Below are positions 31,301 to 33,926 of a stretch of DNA of 64,000 nucleotides, piece by piece. How positions within the stretch are numbered: the first letter of the stretch is position 1; every line of letters begins with the position of its first letter. The position numbers are program-made. The stretch comes from Escherichia coli (GTDB taxonomy: Bacteria; Pseudomonadota; Gammaproteobacteria; Enterobacterales; Enterobacteriaceae): NCBI RefSeq assembly GCF_030013205.1, contig NZ_CP122648.1; one strand, given 5' to 3'.

Positions 31301-33926
31301 GGATATTGGCGCACCTCCGCAGCTACTGGCAAAATAGCCAGGACTCCACAAAACGCCTTTGTAGTAATACCTGACTGCAATATCTGGTCGATCTCGTCGC
31401 AGTCACCTACCCGATACGCCTTTGAGGCTGTTTACCAGACTGGATATCGCCAGTTTGGGAGGATAGTTAATTAACAAATGGACGTGATCTGGTTCGCCAT
31501 CCATTTCAACCAGTTCAGCTTCAAAATCAGCACATACATTTGAAAAGTAAGTGCGTAGTTTTTCTGTCGCGTCATGGTCAAAAATCTGGCGTCGGTATTT
31601 GGTGACAAAGACCAGGTGAACAGGCATCAGGAAAACACAATGCCTTCCACGCCGGATATCGGTTTCTTTTTTCATAGACCAAAGTATCATTTGACCTGTG
31701 AAACGATTACAGGCATTTAAATTCCAGTTAAGACCCGGTGGTCAACAGGAGTGTGAAATGAGGCGCTTCGCAGGCGCATGTCGTTTCGTTTTCAATCGTG
31801 CTCTGGCACGTCAGAATGAGAATCATGAGGCCGGTAATAAATACATCCCTTACGGGAAAATGGCTTCCTGGCTGGTTGAGTGGAAAAATGCCACTGAAAC
31901 GCAATGGCTTAAAGATGCCCCGTCACAGCCATTGCAACAGTCACTGAAAGACCTTGAGCGGGCTTACAAAAACTTCTTCCAGAAGCGGGCTGCTTTTCCC
32001 CGATTCAAAAAGCGGGGACAGAATGATGCATTCCGCTACCCGCAGGGCGTTAAGCTCGATCAGGAAAACAGCCGTATTTTTCTGCCGAAACTGGGCTGGA
32101 TGCGCTACCGGAATAGCCGTCAGGTCACGGGTGTTGTGAAAAATGTCACGGTCAGCCAGTCCTGCGGTAAGTGGCACATCAGTATTCAGACAGAAAGTGA
32201 AGTATCAACTCCGGTTCACCCTTCAGCATCAATGGTCGGGCTGGATGCTGGCGTGGCTAAACTCGCCACGCTGTCAGATGGCACAGTCTTTGAGCCTGTA
32301 AACAGTTTTCAGAAAAAACAGAAGAAGCTGGCGAGACTTCAGCGACAGTTAAGCCGCAAGGTCAAATTCAGCAATAACTGGCAGAAGCAGAAACGCAAAA
32401 TACAGCGACTGCATTCCCGTATCGCAAATATCCGCAGGGACTACCTTCATAAAGTCACAACGACCGTCAGCAAAAACCACGCAATGATAGTCATTGAGGA
32501 TTTGAAGGTCAGTAACATGTCAAAGTCAGCAGCGGGTACGGTCAGCCAGCCGGGGCGCAATGTCCGGGCAAAATCAGGTTTAAACCGTTCGATACTGGAT
32601 CAGGGCTGGTATGAAATGCGCCGCCAGCTTGAGTACAAGCAGCTCTGGCGTGGCGGTCAGGTGCTTGCTGTTCCGCCAGCGTACACAAGCCAGCGTTGCG
32701 CGTGCTGTGGTCATACAGCGAAAGAAAATCGCCTGTCACAAAGTAAATTCAGATGCCAGGTATGTGGATATACAGCGAACGCCGATGTAAACGGCGCTCG
32801 TAACATTTTAGCGGCGGGGCACGCCGTTCTTGCCTGTGGAGAGATGGTGCAGTCAGGCCGCCCGTTGAAGCAGGAACCCACCGAAATGATTCAGGCGACA
32901 GCCTGAACGTAGCAGGGAGCCTCGTCATTCAGGGCGTGGAGGATGTCAAGCTGATTCATCTATGTCGAGACGAGCAAGGAAATGACGAATTCCTTCGCGT
33001 GACAAAAATTGCGCAACTTTTTCCTGCTCACTGTGAGTCATGTTGTCTATTGCGCTGATGATTTGCCGATAAGCAGGAGTGCGAATCCCCGGTGCGTATT
33101 CGGCAAGGGGTTCTTCGGCTTCCAGAAGCATCGGCGTGTTATGGAAGGCTGGCGTGTTCTGAATAAACTCGCAAACTTGCGTATCGACCAGAATAAGTCT
33201 GGCACGACCGCCTTTCACGCCGGGAAATTTTTCCGTTTTCCAGCCTTTTTCTCTGATCCAACGGTTAACAGTTTGTTTAGCCACACCGAGGCATTCAGCC
33301 AGTTCTTCGGTGGTCATTTTATTGCGTAATCTTTTCATATTATTTGCTATCGCGAATCCCTAAGCGTTGTAACAATCCGATAATCCCTTCCCGCAGAAGC
33401 AAGGATGTAAACTGTTTTTGTTCAACTGGCGTCATCTCTTTCGCCAGTGTCACCAGCAATACTTCAAGCGGCGCATCACCAGAAAGGGCAGGCGCTTCTC
33501 CCTGACCTTCTGGACGTTCAGCATTGCGAATATATTCACGAACCTGTTCATTGACGTGAACCAGTCGGGCTTTGCCACCCTGGACGCCAGGTTTTGGTGA
33601 CGTTGTCCAGCCTTCCTTGCGTACCCATTTATTAATGGTCTGGCGGCTATAGCCGGTCAGTCTGGCAAGTTCATCTGGCGTCATCCTCTCCTTGAACATA
33701 ACAATTCCCTGAATGTATGTGGGTCTATTAGTAGTTCATTTTATAACACCACTTTACAGGAAACCGTGACATGAATAACTACTGAATGCGAGCGGTTTTC
33801 CAAAATTGTTCATTTGCCTGATTTTTCAGCGATTGAAACTACACGTTGCAATTTGCCGTTGACACATTCGGGCGGAATTCATATGATGCCGCCCGTCAAC
33901 TCGACAAGCTTTACGTGACGGGGCTA

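Follow-up and report, generated by a model that had tools for sequence, protein, structure and literature searches.

A non-autonomous IS609 copy at the gltX-yfeD junction of Escherichia coli probably carries an idle TnpB-ωRNA module

Results

An IS609 copy between gltX and yfeD

The window, by which is meant the whole 64,000-nt stretch of the E. coli contig NZ_CP122648.1 that was analysed, contains an element of the IS200/IS605 family, IS609, between gltX, which ends at 31149, and the convergent gene yfeD. The element is 1748 bp long (31202-32949) and sits exactly 3' of a TTTAT motif (Table 1). It carries a tnpA pseudogene and an intact tnpB, which are divergent, with 7 bp separating their start codons. 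RefSeq labels tnpA at two compared loci "IS200/IS605-like element IS609 family transposase", and these labelled loci, to which the element is 97.7-98.4% identical, serve as the proxy for the ISfinder reference on which the name IS609 rests here. Copies of IS609 at other chromosomal sites are 97.7-98.6% identical to the window element at the DNA level. The exact allele is already in RefSeq: K_EC180 and 15 other pig-associated strains have an identical one, annotated as a tnpA pseudogene and an "RNA-guided endonuclease InsQ/TnpB". The element, the protein family and its mechanism are likewise already established.

Table 1. Features at the gltX-yfeD junction. Positions are those of the window.
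Feature	Position	Strand	Remarks
gltX terminator hairpin	31166..31194	.	terminator-like hairpin; empty alleles L001, L072
Transposon-adjacent motif (TAM)	31197..31201	+	TTTAT, directly 5' of left end
Left end (LE) of IS609	31202..31258	+	boundary from comparing copies at different sites
tnpA pseudogene (Y1/HUH transposase)	31259..31690	-	translation compared with intact 143-aa copy in L007
tnpB	31698..32906	+	402 aa, intact; GTG start
ωRNA scaffold (~147 nt)	32803..32949	+	overlaps final 104 nt of tnpB and RE
ωRNA long-range helix	32803-32808/32941-32946
ωRNA helix	32811-32816/32822-32827
ωRNA helix	32833-32837/32870-32874
ωRNA helix	32841-32848/32857-32863
ωRNA helix	32881-32895/32902-32916
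ωRNA terminal hairpin	32919-32927/32932-32940
Right end (RE) of IS609	32907..32949	+	hairpin 32919-32940, then invariant GGATGTCAA
yfeD	32946..33338	-	stop TGA (32946-32948) and third base of last codon (32949) are IS609 sequence
Predicted ωRNA guide (16-20 nt)	32950..32969	+	GCTGATTCATCTATGTCGAG; position from family rule

Comparison with other E. coli genomes defined both the ends of the element and the occupancy of its site. In the empty allele TTTAT is followed directly by GCTGATTC; in the occupied one the element lies between the two, and a target-site duplication is absent. At five other sites, every E. coli copy has TTTAT or CTTAT against its left end, and in relatives from other genera the motif is TTTAY or TTAY. 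At the right end, GAGGATGTCAA is invariant in 27 of the 29 related ends that reach that far, and divergence starts immediately past it. The terminal four bases of the right end are TCAA, as opposed to TTAT in the TAM. The element lacks terminal inverted repeats and has instead two imperfect subterminal hairpins, one in LE (31218-31225 paired with 31230-31237) and one in RE, which share the core TTCAGGGCG. The RE hairpin covaries among relatives, with a compensatory change in five of its nine pairs. The element entered by the single-strand peel-and-paste route of the IS200/IS605 family, just 3' of TTTAT and without target duplication.

An earlier note on this DNA, made from the sequence alone, had placed the insertion between gltX and yfeD. 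The junction is the right one, but the last 4 nt of the element overlap yfeD. The element landed within the last codon of yfeD, and its RE now supplies the stop codon. YfeD is unaltered, because GCA TAA turned into GCT TGA, and the protein (WP_000826499.1) is annotated in one empty-site strain as well as in occupied-site strains. In empty-site strains a terminator hairpin lies between the convergent gltX and yfeD. Owing to the insertion this bidirectional terminator is now 1.75 kb from yfeD, whose stop codon is IS-derived.

The tnpA pseudogene

The tnpA remnant differs from the intact 143-aa IS609 TnpA at 8 of 143 codons. The intact protein matches the NCBIfam model transpos_IS200 (145.7 bits, cutoff 55) and the PDB structures of IS608 and ISDra2 TnpA. 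The premature stop that had been noticed is present, as TGA at codon 96 (31403-31405), and is accompanied by H23P (31622-31624), by replacement of the catalytic Tyr135, which aligns with Y127 of IS608 TnpA, with Ser (31286-31288), and by conversion of the natural stop to CAG (31259-31261).

The suggestion that the element is probably immobile holds. Immobility is inferred because TnpA has a nonsense codon, a lost catalytic tyrosine and two further lesions, because mismatches affect the two end hairpins on which recognition by TnpA depends, and because a further chromosomal IS609 that could supply TnpA is lacking from the closest genomes. In the window lineage the LE hairpin is mismatched (C·C) at 31222:31233; all other copies examined have G at 31222. 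Three pairs are broken in the RE hairpin (32919:32940, 32922:32937 and 32927:32932). A second chromosomal IS609 that could act as helper was found in none of the 16 genomes with the identical allele; in each of them IS609 occupies a single chromosomal place. IS200 copies elsewhere in the window are unlikely helpers: TnpA enzymes are expected from the family to recognise their own end hairpins, and cross-reaction of TnpA between elements failed (PMC10055086).

The TnpB protein

The tnpB product is, as had been proposed, a full-length TnpB of the IS200/IS605 type. It has Pfam matches to HTH_OrfB_IS605 (residues 1-48, E 3e-13), OrfB_IS605 (162-277, E 1e-34) and the Cas12f1-like TNB domain (304-370, E 6e-24), and scores 387.9 bits against NCBIfam guided_TnpB (cutoff 100). 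Residues 3-372 align to ISDra2 TnpB (8BF8/8EXA/8H1J; E 1.7e-56), and D183, E267 and D363 fall on ISDra2 D191, E278 and D361. The RuvC triad and zinc finger are therefore complete, as first read; the three RuvC residues and cysteines C334, C337, C353 and C356 are invariant among 23 aligned relatives. All of the matches listed in the protein homologue search (120) are near-identical E. coli proteins, 93-100% identical, and the more diverse relatives were obtained from related loci in genome contigs.

Two changes, Y160H and N207K, are private to the window lineage, and the first affects an aromatic position that is conserved in all relatives and in ISDra2. The same protein (WP_074150258.1) is found in strain GMF054, whose element differs from that of the window at 3 nt. 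On the + strand a consensus scan detected no sigma-70-like promoter for tnpB or the ωRNA, a result that is uninformative either way, and no obvious Shine-Dalgarno sequence was seen on reading the bases upstream of the GTG. The searched literature contains no report of cleavage activity for an IS609/InsQ TnpB. One study (PMC12781874) lists IS609 TnpB among the candidates that were purified in a screen.

The ωRNA scaffold and the predicted guide

A structured scaffold was found across the 3' end of tnpB and RE, both by covariation and by an independent covariance model. Covariation in 22 relatives supports it: RNAalifold gives 47 pairs, with compensatory changes in 16, and paired cells reach 95.6%, a value attained by 0 of 500 shuffles, compared with 39-50% in slid controls. 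A covariance model from which all Escherichia and Citrobacter copies were excluded matches the window at 32800-32949 with 149.1 bits (E 4.5e-44). The claim of structure rests on covariation, because the single-sequence fold of 32700-32949 is only marginally better than that of shuffled sequences (z -1.97). An Rfam scan of 28500-35000 at E up to 1 identified no ωRNA-type family; the sole match in the region, to RAGATH-18 at 32833-32876 with 25.4 bits and E 0.21 (the gathering score is 44.9), was treated as chance.

The scaffold of the window copy shows some decay. It keeps 43 of the 47 pairs, including the long-range helix beside the guide, and four are broken. The terminal hairpin has a predicted energy of -8.7 kcal/mol (z +0.3), compared with -17.8 (z -3.5) in another copy (L003). 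The covariance-model score is the lowest among 14 close Escherichia/Citrobacter IS609-like copies, the others scoring 152.6-169.5.

The guide had been expected in the ~39 bp between the tnpB and yfeD stops. This does not hold: positions 32907-32949 are the RE hairpin and the invariant GAGGATGTCAA, that is, scaffold. Such elements take their guide from the DNA that adjoins the right end on the outside (Meers et al., PMC10055086). By analogy, the guide predicted here begins at 32950 (GCTGATTCATCTATGT…) and runs antisense to the final yfeD codons, which moves it out of the element and into yfeD. The sequence GCTGATTCATCTATGTCGAG is unique within the window, and the empty allele of strain GmF046 is exactly TTTAT joined to GCTGATTCATCTATGTCGAG.

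Distribution and selection

Of 5426 complete E. coli genomes, 535 (~10%) carry IS609 at gltX-yfeD, among them O157:H7, SMS-3-5, pig-associated ETEC and other lineages. Copies at this site differ between lineages by 20-45 nt per 1748 nt (1.3-2.6% divergence); in the flank comparison the left flank of SMS-3-5, whose register is shifted by an indel, was left out. Same-site copies resemble one another no more closely than they resemble copies elsewhere, and so need not derive from one ancient insertion.

tnpB is intact in most copies and its partner tnpA is a pseudogene almost everywhere. The pN/pS of tnpB is 0.26 for all copies and 0.36 for same-site copies, compared with 0.73 and 0.89 for tnpA, and synonymous diversity is ~4-fold lower where tnpB overlaps the ωRNA. 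Among nine genomes sampled at gltX-yfeD, three independent tnpB knockouts were found. The value of 0.36 among same-site copies suggests some residual constraint, which would not be expected of a relic that is purely idle, although a pN/pS below 1 could also arise by gene conversion between copies.

Discussion

Status of the window copy

The most probable reading, to which we assign a probability of roughly 80%, is that 31202-32949 is an old, non-autonomous IS609 copy in which tnpA is dead, tnpB and the ωRNA scaffold persist, and the nuclease module is idle. The steps that such a module would perform are taken by analogy from the family. The tnpB transcript would read through RE into yfeD antisense sequence, and trimming would leave the scaffold with a flank-derived stretch of ~16-20 nt (GCTGATTCATCTATGT…). 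In complex with this ωRNA, TnpB would cleave DNA in which TTTAT precedes the flank (TTTAT-GCTGATTCATCTATGTCG), the sequence of the empty gltX-yfeD allele; at the occupied locus RE ends in TCAA rather than TTAT, which would protect it. Excision is gone, and therefore the homing or retention function has no substrate in this genome. The module would be idle and drifting toward decay, as suggested by the weak terminal hairpin and Y160H here and by the independent breakage of tnpB in other lineages. The gltX-yfeD copy is in this respect a small natural experiment on the fate of TnpB and its ωRNA after the loss of TnpA, the signs being relaxed constraint on tnpB (pN/pS ~0.3-0.4, compared with ~0.9 for tnpA), repeated knockouts and hairpin erosion.

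The earlier note had held that sequence cannot decide whether this copy is active, domesticated or simply young. Youth can be set aside, given the tnpA lesions and a site common to divergent lineages, and domestication has left no sign at this locus, where tnpB was lost independently three times in nine sampled genomes. Whether the window copy still cleaves its cognate target we regard as an even bet.

A stronger form of decay, in which the module is already functionally dead despite its ORF, an inert fossil disabled by Y160H, the weak ωRNA hairpin and poor expression, is plausible and in our judgement somewhat short of an even chance. The window copy has the lowest covariance-model score among its close relatives, a terminal hairpin that folds no better than shuffled sequence, a substitution at a conserved position of TnpB and a promoter scan without a prediction, and the three independent same-site knockouts elsewhere imply weak selection there. 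Intact sequence is also no guarantee of activity, the precedent being the TnpB of Helicobacter pylori IS608, which was inactive in published assays (PMC10055086). However, TnpB has lost none of its catalytic or zinc-binding residues, the scaffold still reaches 149 bits and keeps most of its pairs together with the helix that adjoins the guide, and the same TnpB is retained in GMF054.

Domestication of TnpB-ωRNA by the host is improbable. The complex could be a guard that cuts incoming empty alleles, and hence a recombination barrier or gene drive, or a regulator of yfeD/yfeC, acting by antisense or in an RNA-guided manner. Either role would fit the greater constraint on tnpB than on tnpA, the survival of tnpB where tnpA is almost everywhere a pseudogene, the reduced synonymous diversity in the tnpB/ωRNA overlap and a guide region antisense to yfeD. 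Against this, the site is occupied in only a tenth of genomes (535/5426), at least three independent inactivations of tnpB at gltX-yfeD occur among nine sampled genomes, the RuvC site is intact whereas the domesticated TldR regulators that are known have lost theirs, the guide would simply come from the place where the element happened to insert, and the RE/ωRNA hairpin is decaying in the window lineage. We likewise give little credence to the broader proposal that orphan IS609 TnpB-ωRNA modules, having become fixed at chromosomal sites once TnpA had died, are kept because they still act, by cutting incoming DNA with the empty allele or by modulating the convergent gene, which here is yfeD. 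If it were true, such modules would bias recombination toward the occupied locus, or modulate yfeD via the antisense read-through transcript, and either role would explain the stronger constraint on tnpB than on tnpA across E. coli.

A young, still mobile insertion, with a tnpA defect that is trivial or complemented in trans, is very hard to credit: TnpB and both ends are present, and tnpA is intact in the IS609 of some E. coli, such as the copy of O157:H7 at TetR-ytfB, but the four separate tnpA lesions including loss of the catalytic Tyr, the mismatches in both end hairpins, the same insertion in distant lineages at ~1.3-2.6% divergence, and the lack of other chromosomal IS609 in genomes with the identical allele all oppose it, and recent insertion is rejected on the tnpA lesions and the site shared among distant lineages.

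Comparison with known systems

The IS609 copy of the window is built like other IS609 copies, including the K-12-type insQ between ydcL and ydcO, with the same 1748 bp, the same LE and RE, divergent tnpA and tnpB and a TTTAT-type target. The ydcL-ydcO site is occupied in 3265 of 5426 genomes, compared with 535 of 5426 for gltX-yfeD. The window lineage differs from other IS609 in TnpA Y135S and H23P, the LE mismatch, a third RE mismatch, and TnpB Y160H and N207K.

The TnpB of ISDra2 from Deinococcus radiodurans, the reference for RNA-guided TnpB, has the same domain order, RuvC D/E/D and zinc finger as IS609 TnpB, which has ~15 extra residues past the RuvC-II glutamate. In ISDra2, tnpA and tnpB are co-directional and the TAM is TTGAT. 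In IS609, by contrast, the two genes are divergent and the TAM is TTTAT. In both elements the ωRNA is encoded across the 3' end of tnpB and RE, and a guide taken from the flank, as is known of the family (PMC10055086), is predicted for IS609.

The TAM of IS609 is that of TnpB2 of ISGst2 from Geobacillus stearothermophilus, TTTAT (PMC10055086). For ISGst2 it has been proposed that TnpB2 cuts the donor joint (TAM plus RE flank) and that the element is thereby restored after TnpA excision (PMC10055086), the role that would also be proposed for IS609 TnpB. In ISGst2 TnpA is active and this retention loop operates, whereas in the window IS609 TnpA is dead and a helper copy is not evident.

TldR proteins, nuclease-dead derivatives of TnpB that serve as RNA-guided transcription factors, resemble the window IS609 in combining a TnpB-family protein and an ωRNA-type guide without a working transposase (PMC10705468). 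They are recognised by an inactivated or truncated RuvC domain and by transposon-independent purifying selection; the window TnpB is full length with an intact triad, and its gene has three knockouts among nine genomes and ~10% occupancy. TldRs have lost RuvC activity and have conserved guides toward host promoters (PMC10705468), whereas the guide predicted here is the flank of the insertion.

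Identity and ends of the element

By its sequence, the element at gltX-yfeD is a stranded copy of IS609, whose tnpA and end hairpins are decayed and whose TnpB-ωRNA module persists at the sequence level. A Megablast search with the region over 5426 complete E. coli genomes identifies it as one copy of a 1.75-kb repeated element, which 5380 of them carry, with a median of three places in each. RefSeq applies the label "IS609 family" to tnpA at two fetched loci. The element ends and site occupancy, which the earlier note proposed to define, could both be fixed. The ends come from a comparison of copies at five further sites in the chromosome, extended to 29 right ends from other genera; identity between copies breaks off sharply one base past either end. 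In E. coli copies TTTAT or CTTAT always adjoins the element on the left; in relatives it is TTTAY or TTAY.

Coordinates of the features discussed (window positions unless a locus is named)
Feature	Position	Strand	Detail
gltX/yfeD shared terminator hairpin	31166-31194		
Left T-run/TAM context	31192-31201		CCGTTTTTTTTAT
IS609	31202-32949		1748 bp; CCGGTGCGCCGTAAAACC… to …GGAGGATGTCAA
LE hairpin mismatch	31222		C·C, lineage-specific
tnpA lesion	31403-31405		TGA at codon 96
tnpA lesion			H23P
tnpA lesion			natural stop lost
tnpA lesion			Tyr135 to Ser
tnpB ORF	31698..32906	+	402 aa
TnpB catalytic residues			D183, E267, D363 (ISDra2 D191, E278, D361)
Covariance-model match	32800-32949		149.1 bits, E 4.5e-44
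ωRNA scaffold	about 32803-32949		overlaps last 104 nt of tnpB
Scaffold-overlapping tnpB	32803-32903		pS 0.012 vs 0.047 elsewhere (small counts)
RAGATH-18 match, sub-threshold	32833-32876		25.4 bits, E 0.21
Predicted guide	32950 onward		GCTGATTCATCTATGTCGAG, antisense to yfeD
tRNA-Ala(GGC)	33920-33995		single gene
IS200-type copy 1	36426-36725 (and beyond)		STnc490 match 36441-36564
Y1 transposase ORF, copy 1	within 36523-37032		apparently intact
IS200-type copy 2	62208-62507 (and beyond)		STnc490 match 62223-62346
L063 scaffold	1289-1438		152.6 bits
L060 scaffold matches	1400-1550; 1570-1698	+; -	158 and 50 bits

TnpB and TnpA

The tnpB ORF is present as the earlier note described it, and the RuvC triad and zinc finger reported there are borne out: the triad aligns with the catalytic residues of the structurally solved ISDra2 TnpB, and it and the four zinc-finger cysteines are without variation in 23 aligned relatives. 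The two proteins align end to end (E 1.7e-56). The window protein has all three IS200/IS605 TnpB Pfam domains (HTH_OrfB_IS605, OrfB_IS605 and Cas12f1-like TNB) and scores 387.9 bits against the NCBIfam guided_TnpB model (cutoff 100). Its GTG start is supported by an ATG at the same position in other-genera orthologues and by the lie of residues 1-48 within the HTH domain. Two substitutions are private to this copy, N207K and Y160H, the latter at a position that is aromatic in all relatives and in ISDra2.

The premature stop claimed for tnpA is there, together with further lesions. One of them removes Tyr135, the aligned counterpart of Y127, the catalytic residue of IS608 TnpA, and a residue kept in every relative; the gene is dead on several counts. 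It is divergent from tnpB, with start codons 7 bp apart; this is the normal subfamily layout, since other-genera relatives share it and have tnpA intact, at 143 aa. The window RE hairpin folds at -8.7 kcal/mol, not better than shuffles; that of copy L003 folds at -17.8 kcal/mol (z -3.5).

Both the window and SMS-3-5 have the codon-96 TGA in their gltX-yfeD copies; it recurs in a ydcL-ydcO copy of strain EC24 and is missing from the O157 gltX-yfeD copy. This distribution suggests either that IS609 copies have undergone gene conversion or that an already-dead copy was mobilised.

Insertion site

The empty allele in strain GmF046 reads …CCGTTTTTTATTTAT|GCTGATTCATCTATGTCGAG…, and occupied alleles read TTTAT[IS609]GCTGATTC…, without duplication. 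The element is not strictly intergenic, because the cut falls inside the last codon of yfeD and RE overlaps the end of that gene. GCA TAA has become GCT TGA, so the final four bases of IS609 now provide the yfeD stop and, before it, the last base of the Ala codon. The YfeD protein is unaltered, and one accession is annotated in an empty-site strain and in occupied-site strains alike. The insertion puts 1.75 kb between the shared terminator hairpin and yfeD.

The left context is 2 bp shorter in the window and in the occupied strain GMF054 than in other occupied and empty alleles (CCGTTTTTTATTTAT), a small deletion in the gltX terminator tail; TTTAT still adjoins LE. Between yfeC and pdeA the window has one tRNA-Ala(GGC) gene where K_EC180, E2348/69 and SMS-3-5 have two in tandem; the window is thus not identical to K_EC180, although the IS609 region is 100% identical. 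Just downstream of pdeA lies the first of two identical IS200-type direct copies, 25.8 kb apart, each with an Rfam STnc490 match (146.4 bits). Their transposase belongs to the same superfamily as the dead IS609 tnpA; the element is different.

The ωRNA scaffold and predicted guide

The fold and covariance search proposed for the 3' end recovered a scaffold. The last 200 nt of 22 elements, whose TnpB proteins are 51% to 95% identical to that of the window, were aligned, giving a consensus of 47 pairs, 16 with compensatory changes. Paired cells amount to 95.6%, vs 39-50% with partners slid 1-3 columns, and column shuffles never attained the observed values (0/500). A covariance model trained on non-Escherichia, non-Citrobacter sequences only has exactly one match in the 64-kb window. 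Covariation and this match together delimit the scaffold. In a set of seven E. coli IS609 copies, the overlapping part of tnpB has about 4-fold lower synonymous diversity than the rest of the gene, which, on small counts, fits RNA-level constraint on the coding sequence.

No curated Rfam family covers the IS609 ωRNA; the RAGATH-18 match inside the scaffold falls below the gathering score (44.9) and is probably chance. Two fetched loci are remnants rich in ωRNA sequence: L063 (Escherichia whittamii) retains only the last 64 tnpB codons, with a complete scaffold, and L060 (Citrobacter amalonaticus) has two tail-to-tail scaffold matches.

Where the guide had been expected, in the 39 bp that follow tnpB, lie instead the RE hairpin and the invariant GAGGATGTCAA. 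In this family 16-20 nt of flank past the right end serve as guide (Meers et al., PMC10055086), and the guide predicted by that rule would here be yfeD antisense sequence. Its target would be the donor joint, TTTAT plus guide sequence, which occurs naturally as the empty gltX-yfeD allele. The occupied locus would escape the predicted cutting because RE terminates in TCAA, not TTAT.

The scaffold of the window copy scores lowest of 14 close (Escherichia/Citrobacter) IS609-like copies (149.1 vs 152.6-169.5 bits) and has four broken pairs, including three in the terminal RE hairpin.

Distribution and fate of the copy

Of the 5426 genomes, 535 have the RE-yfeD junction and 3265 the K-12-type ydcL-ydcO junction. 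Sixteen isolates from swine carry the exact allele (100% identity over 1901 nt), several of them named ETEC and two O139:H1. All 16 have no second IS609 place in the chromosome record, so no chromosomal helper TnpA is expected. Same-site copies in O157, SMS-3-5, O158:H23 and other lineages show 20-45 differences per 1748 nt and resemble one another no more than they resemble copies at other sites, a pattern consistent with old insertions that gene conversion may have blurred.

All nine genomes sampled for the gltX-yfeD copy have tnpA as a pseudogene, and tnpB has been knocked out in three independent events: SMS-3-5 has a 2-bp insertion, AST215 a stop at codon 8 and O84:H7 a stop at codon 315. 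Pooled across copies, pN/pS is 0.26 for tnpB vs 0.73 for tnpA; for same-site copies the values are 0.36 and 0.89. Thus tnpB is under some family-level constraint, while selection at gltX-yfeD is evidently weak.

The earlier note held that an active, a domesticated and a young element could not be told apart from sequence. This stands for activity, the chance that the window copy can still cleave being roughly even. Domestication of its TnpB-ωRNA is unlikely, given that tnpB is repeatedly knocked out, that few genomes have the site occupied and that the guide is no more than insertion flank, and a young, active insertion is excluded. For a stranded copy, the role established for the family, in which RNA-guided cutting of the vacant site restores the element, would have nothing to act on, because excision is no longer possible.

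IS609 is presumably listed in ISfinder by name, and RefSeq annotates the identical allele as InsQ/TnpB with a tnpA pseudogene. IS609 TnpB is among the proteins purified in a published screen (PMC12781874). Much work exists on the protein family and on its RNA, and the allele is already annotated, so nothing of substance here is new.
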